From NCBI GenBank assembly GCA_963758695.1, contig CAVWWM010000009.1:263521-327520 (forward strand): a stretch of 64,000 nucleotides of DNA, in the 5' to 3' direction. A program made the translations under genes and the position numbers. The notes beneath the pieces were generated by a model. The model was not told where the DNA came from. It ran no database searches and worked only from the letters and a program-made list of their open reading frames with translations. Shown here piece after piece: positions 6,095 through 45,197 of the stretch; positions within the stretch are counted from its first letter, which is position 1, and every line of letters starts with the position of its first letter. This DNA comes from an uncultured Actinomycetes bacterium. GTDB lineage: Bacteria > Actinomycetota > Acidimicrobiia > Spongiisociales > DATADW01.

Positions 6095-6176
6095 AGGCCG
6101 CGGCCCCGGCTCGATTCCCTCCGCCACAGAGAAGGCTCTGCCTCACCCGATGAGGGGAGGCGCGAGCGGAGCGAGC

Positions 6177-6248
6177 GGAGGGGGTGACTCAATGCGGGCG
6201 CGGGACACGAATCACCCTCCCCCAACCCCCTCCCTCACCGGGAGGGGG
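6177..6248. repeat. GC-rich hairpin module of the intergenic repeat family
   Basis: CCCCCTCCC-tcacc-GGGAGGGGG (6226-6248) is a perfect 9-bp stem. GGAGGGGGTGA (6177-6187) pairs imperfectly with TCACCCTCCCC (6212-6222). A tandem GCGAGCGGA x2 lies at 6162-6179. Confidence 0.6.
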
Positions 6249-6253
6249 CGCCG

Positions 6254-6281
6254 CGTCTTCCGTCTGCCGTCTTCCGCCTCT
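6254..6281 (-). repeat. heptanucleotide tandem repeat, 4 units (locus A)
   Basis: cgtcttc cgtctgc cgtcttc cgcctct abuts the TAG stop (6282-6284) of the ABC ATPase gene. The sense strand of that gene reads (GAAGACG/GCAGACG)n. Confidence 0.85.
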
Positions 6282-7046
6282 CTAGAGGATCTGACTGAGG
6301 AACAGCTTGGTGCGGTCCTCCTCGGGGTCCTCGAAGAAGTGCTCGGGGGTGCCGACCTCGACGATCTGGCCGTCGGCCATGAAGACGACACGATCGGCAA
6401 CGGCGCGGGCGAATCCCATCTCGTGGGTGATCACGATCATGGTCATCCCAGATTGGGCCAATTCCTCCATCACCTCGAGCACCTCCCTGATCATCTCGGG
6501 GTCGAGCGCCGAGGTGGGCTCATCGAAGAGCATCACCTTGGGCTGCATGGCGAGGGCACGGGCGATGGCGACCCGCTGTTGCTGGCCGCCCGATAGCTGG
6601 CCGGGGAACTTGTGCGCCTGTTCGGGGATCTTGACCCGCTCCAGCATCCGATGTGCCAGGCCCTCGGCTTCCTTCTTGGGAAGGTGACGGACCTCATGGG
6701 GGGCGAGGGTGATGTTCTCCATCACGGTGAGGTGGGGGAAGAGGTTGAACTGCTGGAAGACCATCCCGGTCTCGCGCCGGACCTCTTGGATGTGTCGGAT
6801 GTCGTCGGTCAACTCGATGCCATCGACGACGATCCGCCCGCGATCGTGCTTCTCAAGACGGTTTATGCAACGGACCAAGGTCGACTTACCCGACCCCGAG
6901 GGGCCGATCACGACCACCACCTCCTGACGACCGACCCGCATGTCGATCGAGTCGAGCGCCTGAAAATCGCCGAAGAACTTGCTGACGCCCTCCAACTCGA
7001 TGATCGCCTCGCCCTTGGCCTGCGTGGCGTCGGATATCTCTGTCAT
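6282..7046 (-). CDS. amino acid ABC transporter ATP-binding protein (AapP/GlnQ-like)
   Basis: Walker [10 protein letters not shown], signature [15 protein letters not shown], Walker [12 protein letters not shown]. Confidence 0.93.
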
Positions 7047-8290
7047 CTCTCACCCACCCCGAGTCGCTTCTCCAGACGCCGCGCCTCACGCGACATTGTG
7101 TACGAGCCAGTCCAGAAGATGAGGGCGATGAAGGCCAAGGTGATCACGTCGAGACCACGTCCGAGAAAGTCCGGTTGGGTCGTCGCCAGCGTTGAGACAC
7201 GCAGCACATCGGTGAGCCCGATGATCGTCACCAGCGATGTGTCCTTGAAGAGCGATATGAACTGGCCGACCATTGCGGGGATCACCGTCCGCAGAGCCTG
7301 GGGGAGGACAATTAGGCGCGTGGTCTTCCAGGCGGGGAGTCCGAGCGCCTGCGACGCCTCCACCTGCCCACGTCGTATGGACTGGAGTCCGCCCCGCACT
7401 ATCTCGGCGATGTAGGCCGCCTCGAAGGCGGTGATGGCGATCAGGGCCCTGGTCACCTGCCCCGGCCGGAGGTTGACCGGGATGAGGAACCCGAGGGCGA
7501 ATGCAGCCATGAAGAGCAGCGTGATCAGGGGAACGCCGCGGATGAACTCGATGTAACCCACGGCGATGGTCCGCACCACGGGCAAGGTGGATCGGCGGGC
7601 CAGCGCCAGCAGCACCCCAATCGGGAACGCGAAGAGGATCCCGGCCGCTGTGAGGAAGAGGTTCAGGTGGAGGCCGCCCCACTGCTCCCAACCCACACCG
7701 CCCCCGGAGAGCACCAGGTAGATCGCGACCAACAATCCGAGCGCGATCAACCAGGTCCAGCGACGGACGCCGGCGGGGAGCCGCAGCCCGACGGCGTAAG
7801 CGCCGACCCCGGCGGCGACGCACCCCACGGTGAGCAGCGCCGGGATCCAGGTACGGGTGAGCGCCAGCAGCACCCCGATAAGGACGATCACCGGCCAGAA
7901 GCGACGCACCCAGCCCTGCGGAGTTGTGGACCGAGGGGGAGGGAGCCCTGACTCGGCGGCTCGGCCCGTTGCCGTGGCTCGAGCGGCACCGGCCACGACA
8001 CCGATCAGGACGGCGATGAGCCCGGTGGCGACCCAGGGACGCCATAGCTGGTCGCGGGGGAATCGCCCCATCAGGAACAGCAGGAGATTTACCCGGATGA
8101 TCTCCCAGTCGGCCTCGAAGAAGACCCAACGAAGCAGAAGGACTGCGCCCGCCACGAGGGCCCCTCCGACCAGGAGGGTGAGCAGGGTGTTGTACCAGGT
8201 GGAGAACAGGTTGCGCTTGGCCCACTCCCTCGGTCGCAACCTGGTCGATGGCGCCTGGTGCTGCTCGGGGGGAGCAAGCTCGACGCTCAT
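7043..8290 (-). CDS. amino acid ABC transporter permease (AapM-like)
   Basis: The C-terminal half carries the polar amino-acid permease EAA-type region ([18 protein letters not shown]). The start is ATG 8290, in an ATGA overlap with the upstream stop. The 645-aa ORF extension is an overprint. Confidence 0.85.
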
Positions 8291-9456
8291 CGCTCCACCA
8301 ATTGGAGCCTGCGGTTGACCACGTTGGCCACCAGCGAGATCACGATCGAGAAAGCGAGATAGGCCAGCATGAGAAGGAGGATGAGTTGGGGTGCCGGCTG
8401 CCCGTTCCCGATGGTCTGACGCACGATGCGTGTGATCTCCGCATATCCCACCGCCAAGGCGAGCGACGTGTTCTTCACGAAGTTGAGGAACTGGTTGATC
8501 ATGGGTGGGACGGCGATACGAAAGGCTTGGGGAAGCACCACGAAGCGGAGTCGCTGGAACGGGCGGAGGGCGAGCGCCTCCGCCGCCTCGGTCTGGCCCT
8601 TGGCGACCGCCTGGATGCTCCCCCGCACGATCTCGGCGACATGGCTCGCCGTGTAGAGGACGAGAGCCACCATCACCGCCACGAACGAGCCGAGCGCGCT
8701 GAACCCCCCTGCGATGCGCCGCCCCTCGAGCGCTGGAAGCGAGATGGTGAACGGCCGATCGAGGATCAGGTAGCCGACCACGGCGAAGAGGAGAAACACG
8801 CCGCCCGCCCACAGAGCCCGGTGGTGTGGCTCGCCGGTCCGCTCCGAAACCCTGGTTCGCCACCACCAGATGAATCCCGCCACCACGAGACCGGTGCCGA
8901 GCAAACCGAGGAACACCGCAAGGTTGGCGCCGGCACTCAGTCCGGGAACCGCGATGAACAGGTTGCTCACCACGAACCATCCGAATGGCGTGTAGCCCTC
9001 GCGGATCGGGGGGAGTTGCAGGATCACCGCGTTGAAGGCGAAGAAGATGATCAGCAGCGGCGGAATGTTGCGCAGGACCTCGACATAGACCGCCGCCGCC
9101 TTGGCCACCAGCCAGTTCGTCGACAACCGGGCGATGCCGACGATCACGCCGATGATGATCAGCAGCGGTACTCCGATGACGGCCAGTGCCAGCGTGTTCT
9201 TCACACCGACCAGCAGGGTGCGCCTTATGGCAGCTCGGGAGCTGATTGGGCTGCCGGCGATGTCGACCCCCGAGGGCTGGTTGAGGAAGTCGAAGTCGGT
9301 CGAGATCCCCGCACGCCGCATGTTGTTGGTCAGGTTGAACCAGAGGACGTAGAAGATGAGGATCACCGCCCCCGCCGCCACGACCTGGGCGCCGACGCGC
9401 AGCACCCTGGTGTTGCGCCAGAACGGGATGCGGGCTGCTTGGCCCGGTGCGCTCAT
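8287..9456 (-). CDS. amino acid ABC transporter permease (AapQ-like)
   Basis: 389-aa multi-TM ORF with NIPPLLIIFF, TEAAEALAL and LPQAFRIAVPPMINQF. Confidence 0.88.
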   Translation of the reverse strand: MSAPGQAARIPFWRNTRVLRVGAQVVAAGAVILIFYVLWFNLTNNMRRAGISTDFDFLNQPSGVDIAGSPISSRAAIRRTLLVGVKNTLALAVIGVPLLIIIGVIVGIARLSTNWLVAKAAAVYVEVLRNIPPLLIIFFAFNAVILQLPPIREGYTPFGWFVVSNLFIAVPGLSAGANLAVFLGLLGTGLVVAGFIWWWRTRVSERTGEPHHRALWAGGVFLLFAVVGYLILDRPFTISLPALEGRRIAGGFSALGSFVAVMVALVLYTASHVAEIVRGSIQAVAKGQTEAAEALALRPFQRLRFVVLPQAFRIAVPPMINQFLNFVKNTSLALAVGYAEITRIVRQTIGNGQPAPQLILLLMLAYLAFSIVISLVANVVNRRLQLVER

Positions 9457-9466
9457 CGGGTTTGGT

Positions 9467-9496
9467 GGAGGGGAGCGGCCCTGCGGCCGCCCCCCT
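9467..9496 (-). other. intercistronic GC hairpin between the binding-protein and permease genes
   Basis: GAGGGGAGCGGCC-ctgc-GGCCGCCCCCCTC forms a 13-bp stem with one mismatch. Confidence 0.6.
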
Positions 9497-9505
9497 CAGC
9501 GATGA

Positions 9506-10681
9506 TCACCGGTATGGAGGGGCGTAGAGCAGCCCTCCATCGGTCCAAAGTGCGTTGAACTCCCGCTCCAGCCCGAGGGGGCTGTTCGGCCCCACGTTGC
9601 GATCATAGATCTCGGCATAGTTGCCTACCGCCTCGATCATCGTCGCCTGCCAGCCGGGCTCGATTCCCAGACCGGGGTCGAATACCGCCAGCTCACCGGT
9701 TTCCGGGTCCTCGATCTCGAGTCCGAGGAAGCGTCGGATATTGGGGTCTTCGGTGTCGTCGAAGGTGGCGACGTTGGTGGAGTCGATCCCGAACTCCTCG
9801 GCCTGAATGGTGGTGAGCACCACCCAATCGACCACCTGCGCCCACTGGCTGTCGCCGTCGCGCACCACCGGGCCCAGCGGCTCCTTGGAGAAGATCTCGT
9901 CGAATATGACCAGCGAATCCGGTCCGCCCTCTTCATCGGGGAAGGTCGAGCGAACGCCGGCGAGCTGGCTCCGGTCGGACGTCCAACCGTCGCATTGGCC
10001 GGCGATAAAGGCCGCCTGTATCTGCTCGTTTTCCTCGAAGGTGATCGGCTCGTACGGAATGTCGCCCATCCGGTCGGAGAGGTTCCCTTCGGTGGTGGTT
10101 CCCGACAGCGTGCAGATGGCGGTGTCCGTCATGTCATCGATGGATTCGAACCCGCTGTCGGCCCTCACCATCATCCCCTGACCGTCATAGAAGGTCGTGG
10201 TCAGGAATGTCGATGTGAGCTCACCGTCGCGCCCCGCGGTGCGGGTCGTGTTACGGATGAGCACGTCGACTTCGCCCGACTGGAGAGCGGTGAACCGCTG
10301 CTCGGTGGTCAGAGGCCGGTACTCCACCGCCTCGGGGTCGCCGAGGACCGCAGCGGCGACCGCCCGGCAGAAGTCAATGTCGAACCCGGCGAAGTTGCCA
10401 TCGGCGTCGACAAACCCGAATCCGGGCACGGCGTCGTTGACCCCGCAGATCAGGGTGCCCCGCTCCTGCACTGCGGCCAGCGTCTCGCCGGCCGGCGCAG
10501 CGGCGGCGGTCGTGCCTGTGTCACCGGCGACGGTCGTGCCGGTGCCTCCTGCGACGGTCGTACCGGTGCCACCTGCGGCCGTCGTGTCGGTGGCCCCACC
10601 CGTCGTATCAGGAGCAGCCGCAGTGCATGCCGCCATCACCACGGCGAAACAGACGAGAAGCAACATCCTTCGTTTCATCAT
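9506..10681 (-). CDS. amino acid ABC transporter substrate-binding lipoprotein (AapJ-like)
   Basis: Signal peptide with a lipobox Cys (VVMAAC), a T/G/A-rich linker, then a type-3 periplasmic binding domain. Confidence 0.85.
   Translation of the reverse strand: MMKRRMLLLVCFAVVMAACTAAAPDTTGGATDTTAAGGTGTTVAGGTGTTVAGDTGTTAAAAPAGETLAAVQERGTLICGVNDAVPGFGFVDADGNFAGFDIDFCRAVAAAVLGDPEAVEYRPLTTEQRFTALQSGEVDVLIRNTTRTAGRDGELTSTFLTTTFYDGQGMMVRADSGFESIDDMTDTAICTLSGTTTEGNLSDRMGDIPYEPITFEENEQIQAAFIAGQCDGWTSDRSQLAGVRSTFPDEEGGPDSLVIFDEIFSKEPLGPVVRDGDSQWAQVVDWVVLTTIQAEEFGIDSTNVATFDDTEDPNIRRFLGLEIEDPETGELAVFDPGLGIEPGWQATMIEAVGNYAEIYDRNVGPNSPLGLEREFNALWTDGGLLYAPPYR
10504..10599 (-). repeat. four tandem 24-nt coding repeats in the lipoprotein linker
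   Basis: Units lie at 10504-27, 10528-51, 10552-75 and 10576-99. They encode GGTGTTVA-type octapeptides. Confidence 0.8.
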
Positions 10682-14214: not shown

Positions 14215-14240
14215 GTTGGCACGGCAAGAGAGGCTACTTG

Positions 14241-14282
14241 TCCGCCGTCCGCCGTCTGCCGTCTGCCGTCTGCCGTCTCGCT
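14241..14282 (-). repeat. heptanucleotide tandem repeat, about 6 units (locus B)
   Basis: tccgccg x2, tctgccg x3 and tctcgct end 1 nt from the TAG stop (14284-14286) of the second ABC ATPase gene. Confidence 0.85.
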
Positions 14283-14283
14283 G

Positions 14284-15048
14284 CTAGAGAATCTTGGCGA
14301 AGAAGTTCTTGGTCCGTTCGTGTTGAGGGTTGGCGAACACCTCATCGGCGGGACCCTCCTCCACCACCTTGCCCTCATCCATGAAGACGAGGTGCGACCC
14401 GACCTGCCTGGCGAACCCCATCTCGTGGGTAACCACCACCATCGTCATCCCGGTGTTTGCCAGATCACGCATGACGTCGAGCACTTCCTTGATCATCTCC
14501 GGGTCGAGCGCCGACGTAGCCTCGTCGAAAAGCATCACTTTCGGGGTCATGGCCAGCGCCCGGGCGATGGCGACCCTCTGCTGCTGACCTCCGGACAGAT
14601 GCGACGGCTTCTTCCCAGCCTGCTCCGGGATGCCGACCCTCTCCAAGATCGACCTGGCCCGTTCCTCGGCCTCCTGGCGCTGTCGCTTGAGCACCTTCCG
14701 CTGGGCCACGGTGATGTTGTCCAGAACCGAAAGATGCGGGAATAGGTTGAACTGCTGGAAGACCATCCCCACCTCGGCCCTGACCTGGTTGATGTCGGTG
14801 CCCGACGCCTCGAGATGAACGCCGTCGATGTAGACCTCACCGCTGGTGGGCACCTCGAGATGGTTCATGCACCGCAGAACGGTCGACTTCCCCGAGCCCG
14901 ACGGCCCGACGATGACCATCACTTCCCCCGGTCGCACCGTGAGGTTCACCCCGGCAACGGCATGGACCTCGCCAAACCACTTGTGAAGGTCGCGCACCAC
15001 CACCCGCTCGGTTGGGACGGCTTCAGACACGTTGGAGCCGCCGGCCAT
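14284..15048 (-). CDS. polar amino acid ABC transporter ATP-binding protein
   Basis: [24 protein letters not shown] and MLFDEATSALD. It is a paralog of 6282..7046. Confidence 0.93.
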   Translation of the reverse strand: MAGGSNVSEAVPTERVVVRDLHKWFGEVHAVAGVNLTVRPGEVMVIVGPSGSGKSTVLRCMNHLEVPTSGEVYIDGVHLEASGTDINQVRAEVGMVFQQFNLFPHLSVLDNITVAQRKVLKRQRQEAEERARSILERVGIPEQAGKKPSHLSGGQQQRVAIARALAMTPKVMLFDEATSALDPEMIKEVLDVMRDLANTGMTMVVVTHEMGFARQVGSHLVFMDEGKVVEEGPADEVFANPQHERTKNFFAKIL

Positions 15049-15841
15049 ACCACTGCACCACGAGGGAAAGTATGAGCGTGAACAAGAGGTAGAGAAATGT
15101 CATGGCAAGGAACGTCTCCCGGAACTCGAAAGACGAGTTGGCATAGAGCCTCCCCATCTGGGTGATCTCGCGAACCCCGAGCACTGACAGCAGCGACGAG
15201 TCCTTGAGCATGGCAATGAAGTCGTTTCCCAACGCGGGCAGCACGTTGCGCACCGCCTGCGGCAGGACGATGACCCGCATCGCGGTCCGGTGCTTCATCC
15301 CCAACGAACGGGCCGCCTCCATCTGTCCGACCGGCACCGACTCGACACCTGCCCGGAACACCTCGGCTATGTAGGCGCCGTAGATGATGGTCAATGCAAG
15401 GATCGCCCTCCATTCCTGAGAGATCCGGTTGGCCAACCCGAGGGCGTCGCTCACCTCGGGAACGATCCATAGCGCCACCACAAAGATGAGCACCAATATC
15501 GGGACCCCTCGAACGAACTCGACATAGAGCGTCGCCAGGTTGCGGATGACCACGTTGCGCGAGATCCGCCCCAACCCGGTGAAGAGTCCCACCACAAGTG
15601 CCAGGGCGAAAGCGAGGATCGTCGACCGAAGGGTGACCGGTATCCCCTGTATCACCGCGTCCTTGGCACCGGCATACCTGGGGTCGAAGAAGACCAGGTA
15701 GCCAAGGAAGATGAGTATGCCCACCAGGGCGAAGAACCACCAAGGGGCGTCGACGAGCCGCCGGCTGAGCCCGGGAACGTCGATGGCGGCGTGCTCCAAC
15801 TCAGGGTTGCGCTCAGACTCGGAAACCCGTCTGATGGACAC
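15023..15841 (-). CDS. polar amino acid ABC transporter permease
   Basis: 272 aa, HisM/GlnP-type: RGVPILVLIF and EAARSLGMKHRTAMRVIVLPQA. Confidence 0.9.
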   Translation of the reverse strand: MSIRRVSESERNPELEHAAIDVPGLSRRLVDAPWWFFALVGILIFLGYLVFFDPRYAGAKDAVIQGIPVTLRSTILAFALALVVGLFTGLGRISRNVVIRNLATLYVEFVRGVPILVLIFVVALWIVPEVSDALGLANRISQEWRAILALTIIYGAYIAEVFRAGVESVPVGQMEAARSLGMKHRTAMRVIVLPQAVRNVLPALGNDFIAMLKDSSLLSVLGVREITQMGRLYANSSFEFRETFLAMTFLYLLFTLILSLVVQWYGRRLQRV

Positions 15842-15851
15842 GATCAGCTCC

Positions 15852-15877
15852 GGGGCGCCAGGCTGGCCCGGCGCCCC
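15852..15877 (-). other. intercistronic GC hairpin between the binding-protein and permease genes
   Basis: GGGGCGCC (15852-59) pairs perfectly (8 bp) with GGCGCCCC (15870-77). Confidence 0.5.
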
Positions 15878-15896
15878 TTGCTGTTTCCGGGTGTGT

Positions 15897-16832
15897 TCAG
15901 CCGGTGAACCAGGTGGCGTTTATCTCCTCGAGAGTCCCGTCTTGACGCATCGACTCCAGTGCGGCGTTGACCGGATCGACCAGTTCGCTCCCCTTGGGGA
16001 AGATGAAACCGAGCTCGTCGGACACGAGCGATCCCTGCACCAGTTTGATCTTGTTGGCGTTCTGACCGATGTAGCCCTGGCCAGCGGTGTCGTCGATGAT
16101 CACCGCATCGACATCACCGCCGATCAGTGCTTGGACGGCGAACCCGAACTGCTCGAAGGCCTGGACACGCTCCTGGCCGTACTCGGCGGTCGCCGTCTCC
16201 AGGTTGGTTGTCCCGGTCTGCGTGGCGACGATGTAGTCACCCGCCTTGAACTCCTCGAGCGTGGTGAAGCGGTCCTCATCGATGCGCACCATGAGGCGCT
16301 GCTCGACCGAAATGTAACCATCGGAGAAGTCGACCTGCTTCTTGCGGTCTTCGGTGATGGTGATCCCATCGGCAGCGACGTCGTACTGACCCTGTCCGAC
16401 GGCGATGATCATCCCGTCCCAGGCCGTCTCCACGAACTCTGGTGTGCAGTTGAGCCTCGAGCAGATCTCGTTCCAGGCGTCGTAGTCCCACCCCACCGGC
16501 TCACCGCTGTCCTCGTCGATGTAGTTGAACGGCGGGTAGGCATTCTCCACCGCCACGGTCACAGCCTGGCCGCCAAGATCGGGCAGTGCTGCAGCCGACG
16601 CCGTGGTGTCGGTTGCTGCCTCGGTGGTCTCGGTCGCCATCGTCGTTTCCGCAGCCATGGTCGTGTCGGCCGCAGCCGTCGTATCGGCGGCCACCGTGGT
16701 CTCGGCGCCACCTGCGGCAGTGGTCTCGGCGCCGCCACCCGCAACGGTTGTAGCGGACGTACCGCCACCGCATGCCGCCAGCAACAACACCACCACCAGA
16801 AGGGCAGAAGTCGCCCATCGCTTCCTGATCAT
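15897..16832 (-). CDS. polar amino acid ABC transporter substrate-binding lipoprotein
   Basis: Lipobox LLLAAC, a T/A/E-rich repetitive linker, and a type-3 periplasmic binding domain (PPFNYIDE...GWDYD). Confidence 0.88.
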
Positions 16833-16969: not shown

Positions 16970-18736
16970 TTACCCGCTGCTCCGCAGCGGGTCCCTTCCC
17001 CCCTGCGGGGGGACGGAGGAAGAGGAACCTCCAGGTAGGGACAAACGGAACACGCTGCCGCTGCCTAGTTCGCTCTCGGCTTCGATGCGGCCGCCGTGGC
17101 GGTGGGCGACGTGGCGGACGATGGCGAGGCCGAGACCGGTTCCACCGGTGTTGCGGGAGCGAGAGGCATCTACCCGGTAGAACCGCTCGAAGATCCTGGG
17201 CAGATCGCGGGTCGGTATGCCGATGCCGGTGTCCTCGACCACGAGCACCGCGCCTCCTTCGACGTTGTCGAGACGGACCGTGACCTTGCCGCCCCGATCG
17301 GTGTAGCCGATGGCGTTTTCCACCAGGTTCCTCACCGCCAGCACGAGGTCGCTCTGCTGACCCGACACCTCCACCGGGTGGAGGCTGCTCTCGAGCGTCA
17401 CCCCGCGCTCCCCCGCCAACGGCGCGGCTCGGTCGAGTACCTCGGCAACCAGACCGGCAAGCTCGACCTTTTCTGGACTGATCTGCTCCGTCTCGAGCCG
17501 AGAGAGATCGAGAAGGTCACCGACGATCCGGCCGAGTCGGACCGCCGACTGCTCCGCACCAGCGGCGAGACGCTTGGCAGTCGCCGGGTCGCGGTCTATC
17601 GCCGTCTGGACGGTCTCCATTGCCGCCTGGATCGCTGCCACCGGGGTCTTCAACTCGTGCGATGCGTCGGCGACGAAGGAGTAGCGCATCGACTCGATTC
17701 GGCGCTGCTCGGTCACGTTCCGGATGGCGAGAACCACATCGCCATGCACATCCAACGGTACGGCGCTCACCTCGAAGACCTGCTCGGGGCGACCGTGCCG
17801 GATCTCGTCGGTCGCAGTCTCGCCCGATTCCCGTGCCGTGCGCACCAGCCCCTGTAGCGGGTGGGGGACCAACCGAGAGAGCGTCTCGGGAGTTGGGCCG
17901 ATCAGGTCCGCTGCCGCCTTGTTGGCGTAGGCAACCGCGTCGTCCGGTTCGATGAGAACAACGCCGCTGTCCAGGGTGGCCAGCACCAGGTCCCGCCGCG
18001 CCCGCTCGTGGTCGGCCTCCTCCAACCGAGCCCCGAGTTGCTCCGCCATGTGGTTGAAGGCGGAACCCAACCGCCCCACCTCGACCACCCGGCTCGGCGG
18101 CACTCGCGTTGCGAGGTCGCCCTCGGCGATTCGGTCGACCGATACGGTGAGCTTCTCGATGGGTGCGGCGAGGCGACGCGCAACCAGCCACACCACCAAG
18201 AGCCCGACGGCGGCCACCGCCAGACCCACCAGGAACATCGCCAGCCGGGAGCGATCGAGCCGCTCCTGCACCTCCACGAGCGGGAGGGCGACCCTCACGA
18301 TGAGGCCGTCGCGTGGCGGTATGGCGGTGTACAGGTATGCCTGCCCGGTCGTTTCGCTCTCCCGTTCCGCCGACCCGACTTCGCCCTGCATCGCCTCGCG
18401 CACCTCTTCGCGCGTGCTGTGATCCTCCAACGCGGCGGCATCTGCGTCCGAGTCGGCGAGGACGACGCCCTCGATATCGATGAAGGTGACCCTCATGCCG
18501 GTTTCCTCGCCCAGACGGCTCGCCATGCTGTGCAATCCGTCGGGCTCGGCAAGTGCGACGATGGTCGTCGCCTGCCTCTCCAGCGACTCGGTGAGCAACT
18601 GGCGGACCTGGTCGGCAAGCAAGCGGTCCACCCCCACACCCACACCCATCAGGACGATGAGAACGGTGAGGGCGTACCAGGTGACTAGACGTCGGCCCAG
18701 CGTCGAGGGTCGGCGCGCCCCGACGGCTTCAGGCAT
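16970..18736 (-). CDS. sensor histidine kinase (HAMP-PAS-HisKA-HATPase; SenX3/PhoR-like)
   Basis: [13 protein letters not shown] (H box), N box [10 protein letters not shown], and G boxes DTGIGI and [10 protein letters not shown]. It follows the response regulator with an 8-nt overlap. The last 17 codons lie in the 47-nt repeat. Confidence 0.9.
16971..17017 (-). repeat. 47-nt double-hairpin repeat, copy 1
   Basis: Stems CCCGCTGC/GCAGCGGG (16973-80/16984-91) and CCCCCC/GGGGGG (16998-17003/17007-12). It is the reverse complement of 55174-55220 with 46/47 identity. Confidence 0.9.
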
Positions 18737-22955: not shown

Positions 22956-24044
22956 TCAGCCTCCGGCTGCCGCCTTGGCGTCCTCCCAGGCGGTCCGTGT
23001 CGCTTCCAGTTCAGGGGTGTCGACGTACCCCGCCTCGGTGGTGGCGGTGATGCCCTCGTCGCTCAGATAGAAGTCGACGAAGGAAGACAGCTCGGGCCGG
23101 CTAGCAAGGTCGTTGGTCTTGACGTAGATGAACAGGGGACGTGAGATCGGGTAGCTGCCGTCTGCCACCGTCTCGATGCTCGGTGCCACACAACCCTCGC
23201 CGCCGTCGACCTCAATCGCCGTGACAGTGCCCTCGTTGGCGGTGAAGAAGGCGAACCCGACCCAACCGAGCGAGGTGTCGTTGCCGGCTACTCCCTCGAT
23301 GATGACATTGTCGTTAGGCGACGCCTGGTAGTCGGCCCGGGTGAAGTAGTCGTTCTCGCCGTCACCGTCTAGATCCTCAGGGAGCCCGCTCTTCCTGGAT
23401 CGGTTCGATGACGGTCTCCACGAAGAAGTCGTAGGTGCCCGACTCCTCACCCGGGGCCGTGATAACGAGAGGTGCCTCGGGGTAGGGAGCGTGCCCAGCG
23501 CCCAGTTCGGCAGCAGGTCGTTGGCGTCCGACCAGTTGGCGAAACCCTCTGATTCCGGCCCAACCAGCGCGTAGAGGTCGTTGAAGTCGAGGCAGGTGAC
23601 CTCGGCGTTGTTGGGGCTGGTGATGACGGTCAGTCCGTCGAGCCCGATGAGCAGCTCGACGTACTCGACCCCGGCCTCCTCGCAAAGGGCGATCTCGTCC
23701 TCTTCGATCGCCCGCGAGGCGTCGGAGATGTCGATCTCGTTATTGCAGAAGCGGGCGAGCCCGTCGCCGGTCCCGGGACCCTCGACCGAGATGGCCACCT
23801 CGGGGTTATCAGCCCCCCAGTTCTGACCGACCAGCGCGGTGATGGGCTCGACCGTGGACGATCCGGAGACGACGACGCTCCCGGCTGCTCCGGACGCAGT
23901 CGTGGCGGACCCTCCGTCGGCGGCGCTGGTATCAGCCCCACCTCCAGCGGTCGTGGTGTCGCTGGTCCCGCCCCCGCATGCGGCGACCACCAGCGCCAAG
24001 AGGCTCACCATGACCACGATTCGGACCTGCTTGCCGAATATCAT
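22956..24044 (-). pseudogene. pstS: phosphate-binding lipoprotein PstS, compensated double frameshift as assembled
   Basis: Lipobox VVAAC and a PBP-like fold. The conserved segment ELGAGHAPYPEAPLVITAPGEESGTYDFFVETVIEPIQEE is encoded in another frame (ORF 23377..23685). Junctions lie at about 23505-23512 and 23380-23397. The main frame stays open. Confidence 0.8.
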
Positions 24045-24204: not shown

Positions 24205-24227
24205 GCGGAGTGTCCGGAGAACGAGTC

Positions 24228-24383
24228 GGAAGATGGAAGACGGAAGACGGAAGGAGGAGGAGAGCCCAGCGGGCTTTATGGGGGGTGCTCGAGGGGACGG
24301 CTCCTGCCTACGCGTGCCGCCTATTCAGGCGTGGTGGCCGCGGGATTTCACTTCCGTCTTCCGCCTTCCGCCTTCCGTCTTCA
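24228..24383. repeat. inverted pair of heptanucleotide tracts flanking an 88-nt core (locus C)
   Basis: The left arm is (GGAAGAC)-type x5 at 24228-24262. The right arm is (CTTCCGT/C) x5 at 24351-24383. The arms are approximately complementary. The right arm contains the CHAD gene stop codon. Confidence 0.8.
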
Positions 24384-25849
24384 CTTGAGCCACTTCGATC
24401 GGTTGCGGACCCGGTCCCAGGCTGCGGTCCACTCGGCGCCGGTGCGCGCCGCGGTCGATCGCTCGAGACCGGCGAGCTCTCCGACCACAAAACTCAGGTC
24501 GGGGTCACCGGCGCGGAACTCGTCGCGGAGCCAGCGCTGACCGACGACGGCGTCCTGGTGGGACCCGAGCACCTCCTGCAGGTCGGCGGCGGCCGAGGCG
24601 AATGATGAGGCATCCTTGCCGGCCACAGGTTCCACCGCCTCGGCGGCGTAGCGCGCCCGTTTAGCCCTGAGACGGACATTGTGGAGTTGCTCGTCGGCGG
24701 GCGGGTCGTCGAGTTCCCTCACAGCGTTGCGCAGTTTGCGCCACCGCTTGGCCACCATCGGTCGGAGTGCCTCGACGGCGGGCTCGCCGGCGTTGTCGAG
24801 AAGCCTTGGATTCACTGCCCCCTCGACCATGCGGTCGAGAAGTGCCAGGTACTCCGGCTGTTCGAGGAAGTGAATGAGGCGTGCCCGGGCGACGTGTCTG
24901 TCACCGAGACGCTGTAGCACGATCTTGTCCACCATCGATGCGTCCTCGGCCGGTAGTTGGTCGCCCATCCTGGTTAGGCGTTCGATGAGGACATCGGCGT
25001 CGCGCACCTCGCCGAACATGTTGGCCAGCAGATCGAGATCGGCACGAAGAGCTTCGGACCACTCCTGGTCGAGCACCGGGCGGAAGCTCTGCAGATACGA
25101 GCGGAACCTGCGAACGGCGACCCTCGCCTGGTGGACGCCTTCTGGGTCCACCCCTTCGACCGCCATCGGCGCATGGAGGATGAACCGACGGACAGCCGAC
25201 GAAAGCTCGGAAACGAGCAATTCCGCCGCGGTCGAATCGTCTCCCAACTCACAACGGGGACGTCTGACGGATCGACAGCTCTCGGTCCCAACACCCGAGC
25301 GAGACGCGTCTCGATGGCGTCTCCGATGTCTCCACGAAGTGCCGCCAGGAGTTTGTCGGCGCGTTCGCCGTCTGCGACAAACTGGACCTCGAGCTCGCGG
25401 AACCCCGAGGCAGGGCCTGCATCACGTCGCACGATCACGGCGTCCTCGTGCAGTTCGGCCAACAGACCACCCGCACCGTCGATGAGGCGGTAGGTGCGAC
25501 GGCTGCTGCGGAGCGACGCCAAGGGCACGATCGGCGCACCGCGGGAAAACGAGCGGGTCAGGCTGAGGGCGTCGAGCGGTACGACATCGCCATCGCCACC
25601 GAGCAGGCGCCCGATTGCTCGTGGCCTGCCATCGGGGTCGGGAAGCTCGACAGCCCACCCCTCCCCCGCCCGGAATGTCAGGGTGGCCCCCCAGCGCGCC
25701 AGCCGCAGGTCGGTGGTGTCGTGATAGGTCGTCTCGAACAGCGAAGGCGGGGCGGGGGGCGCCACCACCCGGAGGCCGAGCGAGCCCAGGTCCGGGATCC
25801 TTTCCCCGCGCTCCAATGCGAAACGAAGCGTTCGCCTCGCCTCAGTCAT
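24381..25849 (-). pseudogene. CYTH-CHAD domain protein, one frameshift as assembled
   Basis: The N-terminal CYTH-like half is ORF 24974..25849 (YHDTTDLRLARWGATLTFR...ELEV). The C-terminal CHAD half is ORF 24381..25247 (VHQARVAVRRFRS..., LHNVRLRAKRARYAAE). The junction is at about 25245-25252. Confidence 0.75.
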
Positions 25850-27923
25850 CGCGGCTCGACGCCCTCTCTATCGCCAATTCCTGGAGCCGTCTGTGGGTCT
25901 CGATGCCCCTCCCCGTGGGAACTTTCACCCAGCTTCCGTTCGCCTTCAGTTCCCAAGCCAACTCGTCATCCTCACGAAGGACGTCGAGCACCTCTTCGAG
26001 CCGTGATTGCAGCGCCGGGTCCTCCACCGGTGTCAGCGCTTCGACTCTTCGGTCGAGGTTGCGGGGCATCATGTCGGCCGATCCGATGTAGTAGAGAGGC
26101 TGTTCGGCGCCGAAGCGGTAGATCCGTGAGTGCTCCAGATATCTGCCAACGATCGAGCGGACGGTGATGTTCGATGACATCCCCTCCACGCCGGGACGGA
26201 GACAACAGATCCCGCGCACAAACAGTTCTATCCGGGTTCCGCTCTCGGAGGCCTTGTACAGCGCCTCGATCATCTCGGCGTCCACCAGCGCGTTCATCTT
26301 CATCACGATGTGTCCGCCGGGGCGGGAGGTCTCGCGGTCGATCAGCGCCAGGATCCGCTGTCTCAACTCGACCGGGGCCACGAGCAGCTTTCGGTAGTGG
26401 CTCTGCTCGCTGTATCCGGTGAGGAAGTTGAAGAGATCGGAGAGGTCGGCGCCGATGTCGTCGTCCGTGGTGAACAGTCCGACATCCTCGTAGATGCGCG
26501 CGGTGGAGTCGTTGTAGTTGCCGGTGCCGATGTGGGCGTATCGCCTGATGACGCCCTCCTCCTCGCGCACCACGAGCGTGGTCTTGGTGTGGGTCTTCAG
26601 CCCGACCAGCCCGTACACGACGTGCACCCCCACCTCCTCCAAGGCGCGCGCCCACTCGATGTTCCGCTCTTCGTCGAAGCGCGCCTTGAGCTCGACGAGG
26701 ACGGCGACCTGCTTGCCCTCGTTGGCGGCCTCGATGAGCGCCTCCATGATCGGGCTCCCGAGGACGTGCGGTAGAGGGTCTGCTTGATGGCGAGCACATC
26801 GGGGTCGGCTGCGGCTGCGGCCAGGAAAGCCTCGACCGAGGTGGAAAAGGAGTCGTATGGATGGTGTACGAGCAGATCGCCTTTGCTGATGGCAGACGAA
26901 CACGTCCGGTGGCTCGCCATCGACCGTGGCCAGCCTGGGGTCGGTCACCCAGGTCGAAAGCCGGCCAGCTGAGGTCGGGTCGGGACGAGGGCGAGACAGC
27001 GAGAACAGACCAGCCATGTCCAGCGGCCCAGGCATCTGGTACACGTCCTCGGGACCGACTTTCATCTCGCGCATGCAGGAGTTCGAGGGCGTGGTCAGGG
27101 ATCCCCGGCTCGACCTCGAGCCGCACCACCCGGCCGAAGCGCCGTCGTGTGAGCTCCGACTCGATGGCGGCGAGCAGGTCGTGGGCCTCCTCTTCCTCCA
27201 CCTCGAAGTCGGCGTTGCGGGTTACCCGGAAGGGGTGATGGTCGACGATCTCCATCCCGGGAACAACGCGTCCAGATGCGCCGCGATCACCTGCTCGAGC
27301 GACACGAAACGCTCGCCGTCGGGCATTACCACGAACCGGGGGAGGATCGGGGCACCTTGACCCTGGCGAAGCGGGTCACCGCCGGTCCGCGGGTTGCGGA
27401 CGAACACCGCCAGGTTGAGCGAGAGATTGGAGATGTAGGGGAAGGGGTGCGCCGGGTCCACGGCAAGCGGTGTCAGCCACCGGGAAGACGCGCTCGCGGA
27501 ACTGCTCGTCGAGATACTTCCGATCGTCGTCGTCGAGACTGTCGTAAGAGGAGAAGGCGATCCCGGCTTCCTCAAGGCGGGAGCCACCGACTCGTGGAAG
27601 CAGCGGGATTGGCGGTCGGACAGACCTAGGACCCGTTGCCGGATGGCCTCCAGCTGATCGGTGGCGGACAACCCGTCCGCGGAAACAGTCCGCACACCCG
27701 CCGCTTGCTGTTCCAGGAGCCCCGCCACCCTCACCTGGAAGAACTCGTCCAAGTTCGACGAGTAGATGGCGAGGAACTTGGTTCGCTCCAGCAGGGGGGT
27801 CGCCGGATCCTCGGCGATCGCGAGGACCCGCTCGTTGAAGTCGAGCCAGGAGAGCTCACGATTGGTATACCGATCCGACACTGGCCCTCGGGCTGACGAC
27901 GCAGCGAGGCTAGTAGGAATCAC
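25842..27923 (-). pseudogene. ppk: polyphosphate kinase 1, multiple frame disruptions as assembled
   Basis: PPK1 motifs are spread over all three minus frames: [76 protein letters not shown] and [15 protein letters not shown]. At least 8 frame switches were counted by eye. The net length is a multiple of 3. Confidence 0.85.
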
Positions 27924-27961
27924 GCCCTCACGTCAGATCGGCCGATGCCTCGTGCCGGACC

Positions 27962-29084
27962 TCAATCCGGGAGCACCCGCACCTCGGCGGCGGGGAATCC
28001 CTTGGCCCACCAGTGGGCATAGCGGCTGTCGACCCTCGGGTCCCTGTCGGCGAGGAACGAAACGAGCGCCCGAGCCTCTTCGGCCAGCCCATCCCAATCC
28101 TCGTCATCGAGGCGGTGGAAGGCAGTCGCCTCGATGCCTCCCTCGACCGGGCGCCAGACACCGGCGACATAGCCGTCGATGAGCAGCGTGGGGAGGACGT
28201 CGCCATTGCGCTTGATGACCAGGGCGGTATTCGGGGGGGACGATGCGGCTGCGGTCGAAGTAGGCGAGGAGGGAGTTGTCCACATCGGGAGAAGCCGCGG
28301 GGGTGCACTGGTGTCCTCGGCTGGGAGGGGCCCCGGGCACATCGAACAGCTTGGCGCCTCCGGGACCTTCCACCTCGACGACCCGGCCGTCGAGCGTCTT
28401 CAGTGCCTGCTGCGTCACCGGCCGGCGCAGAATGGTGAACAGGGCGAAATCGGGCACCGAGGCGGGGCCGAACGCCTCCAGGTAGCGCAGCACCAACGAC
28501 TGGGTGCGACTCCTCCGGTGACGCGTTCTTGGTCTTGGCAGAGAAGTACGAGGCCGCTGACCAAAAGACCATGGCCCGCCGGTCGGTGCGTGGTGCAGGG
28601 GGGCGAACCTGCGCAGCGCCCACCACACCCGTGGCTTGCGTTCGCCCACCAAGCCTTCGAGCAGGTCCTCGATCTCGACACCACGCCGCGGCTCGGCGGT
28701 GAATTCGACGAGCGGGGAAACGAGCGCGTCCGCATCGGGGATCGACAACCCGGTCGAGGTGAAGCGGGTGTCGTGGAGCACCGAGCCACGGAGGCTGGGA
28801 ACCATCACGTTGTGAAAGCCCGGGTAGTCCTCCGCGCGACGGCGTGGAGCGTGAGGCGCAGCAACGATGCCTTGACCACGATGCGGTCGGCAAATGCCGT
28901 GTCGAGGTCTGCGGGGTCGAAGTCGGCGAGCCGGTTCCACAGGGCGAGGTACGGCGAGGCTGCGTGCTGTGCCTGCAGAGCGACGATGCGGCGGACCGCT
29001 TCGACCACGTCGATCGATTCCCGACGAAGCAGCATCTGGCGAGCAAGGGTGCGCCCGGTTCAACCCTCGGGCGGTGAGGCTCAT
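27962..29084 (-). pseudogene. winged-helix DNA-binding protein (YcaQ/DUF1006-like), multiple frame disruptions
   Basis: Segments VEAVRRIVALQAQHAASPYLALW, LVLRYLEAFGPASVPDFA and LLIDGYVAGVWRP...FHRLD lie in different frames. ATG 29084 is in an ATGA overlap with the upstream stop. Confidence 0.6.
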
Positions 29085-30287
29085 CCCTTGACGCGCACCC
29101 GTCCTTCCAAACCTCGACGATGGCGGCGGACAGTGCCTCGAGATCGAGCGGGTCGCCATCCACCACCACCAGGTCGGCACGCTTCCCTGGTTGGAGAGTC
29201 CCGAACTCGCGGTCCGAGACCCATCAACTCGGCGGCGCTGTGGGTGGTGGCCACCAACACGTCGATCGGCAACATCCCCGCCCTGCTCCATCAAGCTCAG
29301 CTCCACGAGGTTGTCGCCGTGGGCATGACTCCCGTGTCCCGTGCCCATCGCCACTTTCACCCCGGCGGAAACCGCTCGGCTGAAGGAGTCGCGGTGGATC
29401 TCGATCACCTCGGTCGCCTTACGGACTGCGCTATCGGGCACCCGAGCACCCTGCTCCACCGCGGCGATCACACCATGCGGCGCCATCAGGGTCGGGACCA
29501 ACCAGGTGCCCGCGCTCCACCATCAACTCGATCGCCTCGTCATCGAGATAGATGCCGTGCTCGATCGACCTGATCCCGGCGCGGATCGCGTTCTTGATCC
29601 CGAGGTCGCTTGAGCGTGCGCCATGACGAACCGTCCTGCGGCGTTTGCCTCTTCCATCAGCAGCATCGAGTTCGGCGGTGACAGATGGGCGTGGGTCGGC
29701 TCGTCGGAGGCGGAGAGGACTTCCCCGGAGGTGGCCACCTTGATCACGTCGGCGCCACAGCGGATCAACTCCCTGACCTTGCGGCGCACCTCGTCGGGCC
29801 CGTCGACCATGGTCTCGGGGCTTCCCGGCCATGCGGGGAACAGCGGTGCGGTGACCCCGGACGCGAGCCACGGGTCGCCGTGTCCTCCGGTCTGGCTGAG
29901 CATTCCGATCGACACCTGCATCCGTCGGGCCCGGAATCAGACCCTCATCCACCGCTTTGCGCAGCCCGGCATCGGCGCCGCCCACGTCGCGCGCCGTGGT
30001 GATCCCGGCGTCGAGCGTGGCCTCCAGATTGCGCGCCGCCTCGAAGAAGCGATACGAGAGGGGCGTTTGCAGCATCCCCACATATCGATGCCGCTGATCA
30101 TGAAGTGGACATGCGTGTCGAAGAGACCGGGGATGATCGTCCGCCCCGAGCAGTCGACCTGCTCGTCGCCATCGAGACCGGAACCGATGTCCACCACGCG
30201 GCCGTCCTCGATGACCACGTCACCCGGCCCTGGAGGATGCCCGGTGCCGTCGAACACCGACCCTCCGCTGAAGACGATGCGGGTCAC
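29081..30287 (-). pseudogene. amidohydrolase-family (metal-dependent hydrolase) gene, multiple frame disruptions
   Basis: IIPGLFDTHVHF, GADVIKVATSG, RFVMAHAQ, IRSIEHGIYLD and ADLVVVDGDPL are spread over three frames. At least 7 switches were counted by eye. Confidence 0.65.
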
Positions 30288-30896
30288 CGCGCCGACAATC
30301 CGTGGAGCAGGAATTCGGCCATGGCGCCGGTGGTCTCACCGGCCACAGCCCGCGGGTCGGGGGCGTCGACCAGGGCACACGCCGACGACATGATCAGGTC
30401 CTGGATAAACCGCCCCACCAACCGGGGCGGGAGCGCCCGGAAGCGGCCCTGCTCGACGCCGACCAGGTAGAGCCGGGCGATCTCGGCTCGACAGATCCCG
30501 GTGGGCGCCATTGATCCTCTCCTGGGTCGACTCGGAGAGCTTGGAAACGTCACGGTGGAGAACCAGGCCGAGAACCGGATCGCTGGCGACGAATCCCACG
30601 GTGGACTCGGCGAGCACGGTCAGCCGGCGCTCCACGGGGAGGTCGTCGGGGACCGAGGCGATGATTTCCTCCACGACCTGGGGGAGAGCCTCCTCGACCA
30701 GCGAGGCGAGCACGTCCTCCTTGTCGCGGAAGTACTGGTAGATCGTGGTACGCCCGATCCCTACGGCGGCGGCGATGTCACCCAGGGTGAGCATCTCGTA
30801 TCCGACTTCAGCCAACAATTGGCGTGTGGCATCGATCAACTGATGCCGGGTCAGTTCCTTGTGCTCCTCGATGTTGGCGGCGCGTATCCGCGGCAT
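30284..30896 (-). pseudogene. TetR-family transcriptional regulator, one frameshift as assembled
   Basis: The HTH LTLGDIAAAVGIGRTTIYQYFRDKEDV is in ORF 30336..30986. The C-terminal half is in ORF 30284..30553. The junction is at about 30500-30515. Confidence 0.75.
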
Positions 30897-32001
30897 GGCG
30901 CTCCAGGTTACGGTCCGGTTGTGTCCGAGGTCGCCGTCGCCGTCTCTCCCGGTAGAGCGAGGCGCCCCAGTGGGCACCCGCGCCAAACACGGTCAGGCAT
31001 ATGAGGGCTCCGGGCGGAACTCTTCCTTCCCGCCGCATCTCGTGGAGGAGGATGGGGAGCGTGGCGGCGGTGGTGTTGCCGTATCGGGAGATGTTGACCG
31101 GGACCATTTCGGGGTCCACTCCGATTGCCTTCCGGACCGCATCGACGATCCGGGCATTGGCCTGGTGGGCGAGGACGAGGTCGAGATCGGCGACATCGAG
31201 CCCGTGATCGGCGAGCACCACCCTGATCGCATCCGGCATCAGCTCGACCGCCTTGCGGAACAACTCGCGCCCGTCCATCACCGGTATGTGGAGCCCGGCT
31301 TCGAGTTGAGAGTGGTCCACCCAGGGCTGGTGGCGAAAGCCCACCCCGGGGACGTGGATCAACTCCAGCATGTCGCCATCGGTCCATAGGCGCGATCCGA
31401 GGTACCCGGACCCGGGATCGTCGTTCCGCCTGAGCACCACGGCACCCGCCCCGTCACCGAAGAGCACGCTCCACGACCTGTGCCGGGTGTTCTCGTCCCA
31501 CTGGTCAGGTGTCGGTGGTTCGTCGGACAGGCCATACAGGTAGTCGCGGTTCTGCCACCAGGGGTGGTAGCCGGCGTGTACCTCGGCCCCGACCACGAGG
31601 ACGGTTGCAGCCCGCCCCGACACGATGAGGGCGTCGGCCAGGTCGAGCCCGTAGAGGAATCCGGAGCACTGCGCCCGCAGGTCGTGTGCCGGGATCCGTC
31701 GCAGACCCATCGCCTTCTGGATCATCGGGGCGATCCCGGGTGCGAACAGGTCAGGGGTCATGGTGGCGGTGACAATCGCGTCTATCTCGTCGGCGACCAG
31801 ACCGGCATCGTCGAGCGCCGCCAGCCCTGCCTGAGTTCCCAGTTGGGAGGCGCCCACGCCCGGATCGGCGAACCGGCGCTGCTCCACGCCGCTCCTCGAT
31901 CGGATCCACTCGTCAGAGACGTCCATGACCCGGGACAGGTCGTCGTTGGTGACGATGCGATCGGGTAAGTGGACGCCGGTGCCGACGATGACGCTCCCCA
32001 T
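30808..32001 (-). CDS. 3-oxoacyl-ACP synthase III (FabH-like KAS III)
   Basis: Catalytic Cys (AQCSGF), His (LAHQAN) and Asn (YGNTTAA) contexts are intact. The ORF reads about 90 nt past the usual C-terminus and into the TetR gene. Confidence 0.8.
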   Translation of the reverse strand: MGSVIVGTGVHLPDRIVTNDDLSRVMDVSDEWIRSRSGVEQRRFADPGVGASQLGTQAGLAALDDAGLVADEIDAIVTATMTPDLFAPGIAPMIQKAMGLRRIPAHDLRAQCSGFLYGLDLADALIVSGRAATVLVVGAEVHAGYHPWWQNRDYLYGLSDEPPTPDQWDENTRHRSWSVLFGDGAGAVVLRRNDDPGSGYLGSRLWTDGDMLELIHVPGVGFRHQPWVDHSQLEAGLHIPVMDGRELFRKAVELMPDAIRVVLADHGLDVADLDLVLAHQANARIVDAVRKAIGVDPEMVPVNISRYGNTTAATLPILLHEMRREGRVPPGALICLTVFGAGAHWGASLYRERRRRRPRTQPDRNLERHAADTRRQHRGAQGTDPASVDRCHTPIVG

Positions 32002-32007
32002 CTGGCC

Positions 32008-34112: not shown

Positions 34113-34242
34113 CGGCCCTCAAGGGTAGGAGGGGAGACAGAGACGACATACGGCGGAGATCGCGCGGAGGCGCTTGCTCGGGCTATGCGATGAACGACAT
34201 CGGTGCGAGAGGTTCAGGCCGCAAGAGTTGGAGAGGATTTTC

Positions 34243-34316
34243 GTTCTTCCGCCCTCCGTCGCCCGTTCTTCGTCTTCCGTCTTCCGCCTTCCGTCTTCCG
34301 TCTTCCGTCTTCCGTC
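34243..34316 (-). repeat. heptanucleotide tandem repeat, about 10 units, the longest tract (locus D)
   Basis: Six near-perfect CTTCCGT/C units at 34274-34315 follow degenerate units. The tract abuts the sortase TGA stop (34317-34319). Confidence 0.9.
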
Positions 34317-45165: not shown

Positions 45166-45197
45166 GAAGACGGGCAGACGGCAGACGGCAGACGGGA
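45166..45197 (+). repeat. heptanucleotide tandem repeat, about 4.5 units, opposite orientation (locus E)
   Basis: gaagacg ggcagacg gcagacg gcagacg is preceded by the hairpin TCCCCC-gaa-GGGGGA. It is not adjacent to a stop codon. Confidence 0.8.

Follow-up and report, generated by a model that had tools for sequence, protein, structure and literature searches.

Why a single heptanucleotide unit should recur in tandem at seven places within 64 kb of one bacterial genome, and at five of them directly behind a stop codon, is the question raised by the stretch of DNA analysed here. The window, meaning the whole 64,000-nucleotide (nt) stretch, lies on contig CAVWWM010000009.1 of an uncultured bacterium of the Acidimicrobiia. 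An original prediction, made from the bare sequence, had described seven tracts of a 7-nt unit in it and had argued for function or a targeted origin. With moderate confidence, the tracts are regarded here as lineage-amplified heptanucleotide microsatellites of the long simple sequence repeat (LSSR) class, like the short tandemly repeated repetitive (STRR) sequences and the GGGAATC repeats of Xanthomonas. Established properties of the tracts are their existence and enrichment, their anchoring at stop codons, their strand bias, the polarity of their inverted pairs, their length polymorphism and their turnover between relatives.

All seven tracts are present. Tandem Repeats Finder (TRF) called a period-7 array at each of the seven places, with 3.3-10.4 copies each, and the units are GACGGAA, GACGGCA and close variants, giving the consensus GACGGMA. 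The 19-mer pattern GACGGMAGACGGMAGACGG, allowing up to 2 mismatches, matches 18 times in the window against 0.04 expected. The exact 12-mer GACGGMAGACGG, a two-unit word, matches 13 times against 0.09 expected, always inside the tracts. These expectations were taken from dinucleotide-preserving shuffles of the window (n=100), none of which reached the observed counts. The same repeats also recur in independent assemblies, including isolates and complete chromosomes, and at orthologous sites of separate metagenome-assembled genomes (MAGs). An origin by chance, or as the assembly artefact that the original prediction had itself considered, is therefore practically negligible. Signs of indel errors were seen in some related assemblies (fragmented gene calls in L199) and in a frameshifted IS110 gene, so that exact unit counts may be slightly off.

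The seven tracts are non-coding by location, as all of them lie outside Pfam-verified open reading frames (ORFs), in a window with a G+C content of 64-69% throughout. As head-to-tail arrays of a unit within the 5-11 nt range, longer than expected by chance, they have the form of heptanucleotide LSSRs. CRISPR arrays, with repeats of 24-48 nt and unique spacers, had been excluded rightly, the units here being 7 nt and contiguous. The simple sequence repeats of phase variation, located 5′ in an ORF or between promoter elements, are not matched by the window tracts, which stand after stop codons. The earlier statement that a 7-nt unit cannot be a coding repeat does not hold, since three units equal seven codons and the last codons of purB in relatives are encoded by heptamers.

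By the boundaries of the original prediction, five of the seven tracts begin 0-2 nt past a stop codon or overlap it (0, 1, overlapping, 0 and 2 nt); with boundaries based on periodicity the range is -3 to +5 nt. The purine-rich strand is the mRNA sense strand in all five, as had been proposed, and tract orientation tracks local gene orientation, not one DNA strand, across the window. The neighbouring genes were confirmed by Pfam as two ABC ATPases, a CHAD gene, a sortase and purB; the CYTH domain also assigned to the 346-codon ORF ending at 24381 was not found by Pfam, which found CHAD there. The tract-associated genes of the window are housekeeping or transport genes.

The tract at 6254-6281 is directly 3′ of the TAG stop (6284-6282) of the ABC ATPase gene 6282-7046(-), and that at 14241-14282 lies 1 nt past the TAG stop (14286-14284) of the ABC ATPase gene 14284-15048(-), about 40 nt upstream of the dxs start (~14199). 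The tract at 24351-24383 has as its first triplet the TGA stop (24383-24381) of the CHAD gene 24381-25421(-). The tract at 34243-34316 has four perfect GACGGAA units by the TGA stop (34319-34317) of the sortase gene 34317-34760(-) and is degenerate at its 3′ end. The fifth, at 55134-55163, begins 2 nt past the TGA stop (55129-55131) of purB 53716-55131(+). Of the two remaining tracts, 24228 is 88 nt away from tract 24351 and 184 nt upstream of the start of a PstS-like gene (24044). Tract 45166 lies in the 205-nt spacer of two (-) genes and is pyrimidine-rich on their sense strand, 108 nt past the stop of an F420H2-quinone-reductase-like gene 45305-45760(-). The other flanking gene starts at or before 45099 and has an orthologue called in L198; a hairpin, TCCCCC-GAA-GGGGGA, adjoins this tract.

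The two ABC ATPase genes are paralogues with 74-80% nucleotide identity at a constant offset of exactly 8002 nt, and the tracts behind their stops have nearly the same offset (7992 nt). Both genes end in CTC-TAG, followed by the tract, and both have SBP_bac_3 and permease neighbours; the two paralogous amino-acid ABC transporter gene sets occupy 6282-10681 and 14284-16832. Because the genes are paralogues, tracts 6254 and 14241 may represent one event inherited by duplication.

The placement seen in the window was also found in other genomes. A search for four units in 185,579 species-representative genomes, seeded with the repeat of the window only, gave at least 116 loci (L001-L116). Their hosts are Streptomyces and other Actinomycetota, Acidimicrobiia, Gemmatimonadota, Chloroflexota, Bacteroidota, Planctomycetota, Myxococcota, Desulfuromonadales, Gammaproteobacteria, Acidobacteriota and Armatimonadota. 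Several Acidimicrobiia MAGs have 3-6 loci each among the loci listed, and the carriers include isolate genomes or complete chromosomes of Streptomyces, Actinoplanes (CP191846), Sorangium (CP150359), Niastella and Litchfieldella.

Position was examined for 130 tracts (L001-L116 and the window) oriented with the purine strand up, of which 104 fall outside rough gene calls. In the purine orientation, 25 of the 55 tracts with a co-directional gene on their 5′ side have their 5′ end no more than 5 nt from its stop (median distance 9 nt). In the pyrimidine orientation, in which a gene ends against the other side and its transcript would read the pyrimidine strand, this applies to 3 of 51, with a median of 155 nt (Fisher p = 2e-6 for the difference in anchoring). 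Where both flanking genes were called, 23 purine tracts are stop-anchored against 2.5 expected from uniform placement of each tract within its own intergenic region, and 3 against 1.8 in the opposite orientation, which bears out the claim that placement and orientation are non-random. Gene starts were not anchored to tracts on either side in this sample. At least seven phyla contribute anchored tracts (Bacteroidota, Chloroflexota, Actinomycetota, Gemmatimonadota, Desulfuromonadales, Gammaproteobacteria and Myxococcota). Often, a T joined to the two purines that open the tract makes up the stop codon (TAG-ACGGAAG, TGA-CGGAAG, TGA-GACGG).

The period is more general than the unit. Among arrays of at least three copies in the loci listed, period 7 is the commonest (193 of about 370, 81 of the 193 with other units), compared with 37 arrays of period 6 and 15 of period 8. 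Different heptamer units are often adjacent to one another. Arrays of other heptamer units in the comparison loci were stop-anchored in eight cases, six of them purine-rich on the sense strand. Degenerate in-phase units continue for about four units 3′ of the core and are absent 5′ of it, giving the tracts a sharp 5′ boundary.

Three further candidates were set aside. A tract running into the coding sequence (CDS), with the stop as a mutated unit, is not supported generally, the upstream in-phase similarity being at background beyond one unit. A long 3′ spacer as a decayed purine tail was rejected, as no purine excess was found beyond the tract and in-phase similarity lasts only about four units. 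Shine-Dalgarno-like pairing and the ARN motifs of Hfq, judged by eye, fit poorly, and the Bacteroidota carriers are not known to use Shine-Dalgarno sequences.

Comparison of related genomes shows how quickly the tracts change. The closest named homologues of purB and Dxs of the window are from Acidimicrobiia. The MAG SMAG_U8718 (L088) of this class is syntenic with window positions 25978-40905 at about 70% nucleotide identity. Nearer relatives were found via protein look-ups, with purB 96% (L197), 88% (L198) and 89% (L199) identical, and L200 has 86% nucleotide identity to the window over 15 kb. At the ABC-ATPase/dxs site there are 6 units in the window versus about 2.5 in L200, with both flanks conserved. 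In two Streptomyces species (L046, L115), the lengths of an orthologous stop-anchored tract differ by an exact 7-nt indel, equal to one unit. A tract common to L198 and L199, located between purM and an aminotransferase gene, has 4.9 copies in the former and 4.3 in the latter. This whole-unit length polymorphism between related genomes is that of LSSRs, and the slippage-prone, variable-number tandem repeat (VNTR) character that had been suggested among other possibilities is supported at these orthologous sites. Tract 45166 is absent from L198, the sole relative with sequence across that site. The orthologous place in L198 (~1300-1345) has an AT-rich near-palindrome (AAAATCATTAGTCGTTGACTAGACAACTAATGATCG) of operator-like look.

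Behind purB, the unit itself has been exchanged. In L197-L199, purB and the ROK gene are convergent and 37-50 nt apart, and the spacer is made of TGAGTAM heptamers followed by inverted CCANTAC (Table 1). The purB stop is inside the TGAGTAM repeat, which encodes C-terminal residues (VSTSN*, LSNE*) that differ between the genomes. The protein ends in EKLV-V/L-S... plus the TGAGTAM repeats in the relatives and in EKLGL* in the window, where the tract follows. At this site the window has four GACGGMA units, a 47-nt double hairpin and an IS110-family transposase instead of the TGAGTAM repeat. A heptamer tract behind purB is kept in four relatives despite the change of unit. A metagenome scan showed no GACGGMA tract behind purB in 42 distant loci with purB identities of 47-68%, a range that is uninformative on close orthologues. 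In L120, a different heptamer stands right behind the purB stop (~1427-1490). Other heptamers (GTARTCC, GGGTKAT, GAGTGGT, GGTGGGT) directly follow stops or adjoin GACGGMA arrays in L120, L045, L064, L088 and L024, which suggests that the unit drifts under a constant 7-nt period. Unit number changes fast, and so does even the sequence of the unit, at a site and with a periodicity that can both persist; this is the behaviour of a microsatellite.

Table 1. Positions of the heptanucleotide tracts and associated repeat elements; coordinates refer to the window unless a related locus is named
Feature	Position	Strand	TRF period-7 array	Units and remarks
Tract	6254..6281	-	6254-6276	GGCGGAA GACGGCA GACGGAA GACG, about 4 units
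Tract	14241..14282	-	14240-14278	(GACGGCA)4(GACGGCG)2
Tract	24228..24262	+	24227-24253	purine strand on +; inverted partner of tract 24351
Tract	24351..24383	-	24351-24382	T-GAAGACG GAAGGCG GAAGGCG GAAGACG GAAG
Tract	34243..34316	-	34245-34317	longest, about 10 units
Tract	45166..45197	+	45164-45196	(GACGGCA)3-4; exception to the anchoring rule
Tract	55134..55163	+	55135-55162	GACGGCA GACGGAA GACGGCA GACGGCG
47-nt double-hairpin dispersed element	55174..55220	+		adjoins the purB tract; sequence TCCGTCCCCCCGCAGGGGGGAAGGGCCCCGCTGCGGAGCAGCGGGTA
Second copy of the 47-nt element	16971-17017	-		98% identity to the first
(TGAGTAM)n + (CCANTAC)n repeat	L197 3860-3923; L198 11285-11350; L199 11285-11352

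The strand bias and the post-stop location can also be read as a neutral by-product of transcription. According to this explanation, the nascent RNA is first ribosome-free at the stop codon, where the ribosome comes to a halt and RNA polymerase moves on uncoupled from it. Purine-rich nascent RNA would then lead to R-loops or backtracking, followed by repair or replication slippage, and purine-sense repeats would be born and expanded preferentially at such a mutational hot spot. It would cover the bias and the location in many phyla without a lineage-specific factor, and it is consistent with tract orientation following local gene orientation and with the rapid turnover between relatives. The sharp 5′ boundary and degenerate 3′ tail are also on its side, as they suggest polar growth. 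However, a hot spot predicts tracts anywhere from the stop to the terminator and not a peak at -4 to +5 nt. The R-loops and backtracking are postulates, the polarity signal, obtained with a heuristic, is modest, and tracts exist that are unanchored and oppositely oriented (45166 and the purM site in L198/L199). A hot-spot origin is considered rather unlikely on these grounds.

As RNA, lone tracts are predicted to be single-stranded, with centroid energies of 0 and -2.6 kcal/mol and z near zero (ViennaRNA, with G-quadruplexes (G4) outside the model); the longest tract is essentially unstructured (centroid 0 kcal/mol). Inverted pairs of tracts are predicted to form stems of 15-35 bp, beginning with the stop codon and frequently situated between two convergent genes. 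In the window, tract 24228 reads as CUCCUCCUCCUUCCGUCUUCCGUCUUCC on the CHAD transcript and pairs with tract 24351, the 5′ arm, in a long predicted stem starting at the CHAD stop (minimum free energy -64.5 kcal/mol, z -2.9). For the pairs in L016, L041, L058, L061 and L111, some of which lie between convergent genes, the predicted folds have energies of -50 to -72 kcal/mol. A second, inverted tract within 150 nt is always downstream of the purine tract (9:0 loci, binomial p = 0.004). Similar to intrinsic terminators, repetitive extragenic palindromic (REP) sequences and bacterial interspersed mosaic elements (BIMEs), the pairs make stems, here beginning at the stop codon. In contrast to these, single tracts have no dyad symmetry and the arms are tandem heptamers, not a unique palindrome. 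No U-tract was found behind the inverted-pair stems, and a consensus terminator scan gave nothing at the tracts.

Other hairpins were also seen next to some tracts. A GC-rich hairpin, CCCCCTCCC-GGTGA-GGGAGGGGG, begins 5 nt beyond tract 6254-6281. It is part of the spacer 6095-6253, which separates the convergent genes of an M20 peptidase and the ABC ATPase, is dense in C-run/G-run hairpins and also contains GGGGGAGGGTGA...TCACCCCCTCC. At purB, the last unit of the tract pairs with the CCGTC that opens the next hairpin element.

Another proposal is that the tracts are functional RNA arrays. The sense strand would bind a multimeric RNA-binding protein, and the antisense (CUUCCGU)n, which is C-rich, G-poor and unstructured, would load Rho against antisense or read-through transcription. 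One unit family is common to all seven tracts and anchoring is specific to the purine orientation, as such an array would have it. The purine-then-pyrimidine polarity puts a pyrimidine tract in every transcript just before the convergent gene, and the retention of a heptamer tract behind purB points the same way. However, the sites are not conserved at 60-70% protein identity and copy number drifts, and for the Xanthomonas counterparts of the tracts Rehm et al. (2015, PMC4692102) found no effect on expression. No candidate emerged for the binding protein, and the window gave no match in Rfam 15 at gathering score; a scan of the whole window for tRNA and tmRNA was also negative. The spread over at least seven phyla argues against a lineage-specific partner. 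Cyanobacteria show the same bias but are not known to have Rho. A functional array is accordingly held to be quite improbable.

The surroundings of purB suggest another source, a mobile element that brings the stop, the tract and a GC-rich hairpin as a cassette, either REP-like or carried by the IS110-family element by purB. The 3′ end of purB in the window has been replaced from the last codons on, together with the tract, the 47-nt hairpin and the transposase. The 47-nt element starts with TTCCGTC, the complement of one heptamer unit. It was also found outside the window (MAG MFD00962; L045 ~6533-6598 and L078 ~7465-7561). A histidine kinase ORF, in which HATPase_c ends at residue 568 of 588, has its last ~16 codons and its TAA stop from the copy at 16971. 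The element looks like a REP-like dispersed repeat able to supply the stop codon of a gene, as for the histidine kinase gene at 16970, and this agrees with a cassette. On the other hand, only one of the seven tracts adjoins an insertion sequence, the flanks of different tracts have nothing in common outside the repeat, and no heptamer tract adjoins the other copy of the hairpin element. The ABC/dxs tract, moreover, varies in place by unit number with flanks conserved on both sides. The arrival of the tracts as cargo or footprint of such an element is thus highly improbable.

The IS110-family transposase gene (DEDD_Tnp_IS110 + Transposase_20, ~55240-56340(-)) adjoins the hairpin element between purB and the ROK gene 56647-57561(-). 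Its domains are split over three reading frames, either as a pseudogene or through assembly indel errors, and the insertion is absent from L197-L199. A spurious ORF, 55052-56329, runs through the stop-free heptamer tract into purB. Repeats of another kind, with period 24 and period 18/36 (GCGACGGTCGTGCCGGTGCCACC-like), are located at 10501-10592, 16624-16712 and 23923-23974 in the N-terminal parts of SBP_bac_3 and PstS-like genes, where they probably encode low-complexity linkers behind the lipoprotein signal.

Bacterial heptamers are not new as such, and the suggestion of a repeat family undescribed in kind is not supported. Tandem heptamers are reported in PMC4679880 and PMC4692102, and STRRs in PMC2670836. 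Heptanucleotides are the most abundant LSSR class in prokaryotes according to Mrazek et al. (2007), as summarised in PMC4679880, which also relates their proposal that slippage involves a 7-nt segment interacting with DNA polymerase. The tracts share with LSSR heptamers tandem 7-nt units beyond chance, a patchy phylogenetic spread, a mostly intergenic location and slippage-type length changes.

The nearest parallel is the GGGAATC (Xanthomonas) and GGGGA(C/T)T (Nostoc) heptamers of Rehm et al. (PMC4692102). These are intergenic, near or overlapping a stop codon, with the G-rich strand as the coding strand, and 'tandemly inverted' forms exist. Related species have them at corresponding gene junctions, where their length varies extensively; the associated genes did not form a functional class, and the function was reported as unknown (PMC4692102). 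The stop-proximal position, coding-strand bias, inverted forms and length variation are all shared by the tracts described here. Five of the seven window tracts, and the wider sample, have the placement of those repeats (0-50 nt from a stop or overlapping it, G-rich strand coding). The Xanthomonas and Nostoc heptamers, however, contain runs of three to four G, fold into G-quadruplexes and prefer four copies (PMC4692102). A quadruplex from such units takes runs of at least three G in at least four units, and GACGGMA has GG at most. Stable G-quadruplexes are therefore not expected, and the bias observed here is not attributable to them. The occurrence of a single unit in at least seven phyla is a further difference.

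The cyanobacterial STRRs are non-coding 7-bp tandem repeats with the capacity for intergenic hairpins; proposals that they affect transcript stability or translational coupling are unproven (PMC2670836). The 24228/24351 pair resembles them as a 7-bp tandem repeat able to form an intergenic hairpin. STRRs were defined in filamentous cyanobacteria, whereas the window is from Acidimicrobiia, with 65% G+C and another unit. The unit sequences of STRR1-3 differ from GACGGMA. A third family is the TAACTGA direct repeats of marine Beggiatoaceae (MacGregor 2015, PMC4679880). Similar to GACGGMA, one heptamer is dominant in the genome, the unit recurs in distant phyla and its position to a translation signal is fixed. 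TAACTGA, however, stands just upstream of start codons and contains stop triplets, while the tracts here come after stops and are T-free on the sense strand.

The literature search returned no match for the exact repeat string GACGGMA, nor for an Acidimicrobiia host. As far as that search shows, the new elements are the unit, the host and the recurrence of one and the same unit, anchored alike, over many phyla. New to the same extent are the strict purine-then-pyrimidine polarity and a unit unable to form a stable G-quadruplex.

According to the favoured reading as microsatellites, strand slippage in 7-nt steps would create and resize the tracts. They would occupy the first nucleotides of the 3′ untranslated region (UTR), typically starting at or a few bases from the T of the stop codon, with the purine-rich, T-free strand as the mRNA strand, and each would be part of the transcript of the upstream gene. 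A lone tract would act as an unstructured RNA spacer, without start or stop codon, that separates the terminating ribosome from a hairpin or the following gene. An inverted second tract, always downstream, would pair with the first into a very long stem, which, judging by the predicted folds, would probably end or stabilise the transcript in both directions.

Several observations weigh against this reading. Slippage does not predict stop anchoring, because expansion does not consume flanking DNA. The presence of one unit in all seven tracts and across phyla is unexpected from independent random seeds. The strand bias does not derive from background composition either, since tract-free genes have no purine excess: purine loading as the source of seeds was rejected with 464 such genes, with purine fractions of 0.50-0.51 after the stop and 0.507 in the CDS. 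Only about a quarter of the tracts beyond the window are anchored, and tract 45166 and the purM tract of L198/L199 are in the opposite orientation. Gene calls in the comparison loci come from a rough heuristic based on length and G+C at third codon positions. For a hairpin systematically behind anchored tracts there is a trend but no significant enrichment: in the 60 nt past them, z < -2 was obtained in 24% versus 16% and 10% in controls (p ~0.2-0.3).

Heptanucleotides are the commonest long microsatellites of bacteria. The GACGGMA tracts are a clean case without G-quadruplex capacity, in which one unit is found in at least seven phyla with the same stop placement, the same strand and a strict polarity of inverted pairs. 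The quadruplex explanation of the best-studied heptamer families does not fit this unit, and the finding points to a universal cause linked to transcription or translation termination. Cultured carriers in the sample are Litchfieldella qijiaojingensis KCTC 22228, Niastella soli and Streptomyces canus DSM 40017; in the first of these, (GACGGAA)10 immediately follows a TGA stop. For uncultured Acidimicrobiia, the tracts are ready VNTR markers for strain typing. Gene callers are at risk from them, because the T-free tracts extend spurious ORFs.

A bolder proposal, held to be doubtful at present, is that stop anchoring of the purine strand is a general cross-phylum rule for prokaryotic heptamers. 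It would be independent of G-quadruplexes and tied to ribosome termination and uncoupled RNA polymerase, either as a selected 3′-UTR module or as a transcription-driven hot spot of repeat birth. If it is true, the 3′-UTR module would provide an unstructured, Rho-invisible spacer on the sense strand and a Rho-loading site or hairpin arm against antisense transcription, and the arrays would be a natural read-out of transcription-translation uncoupling.

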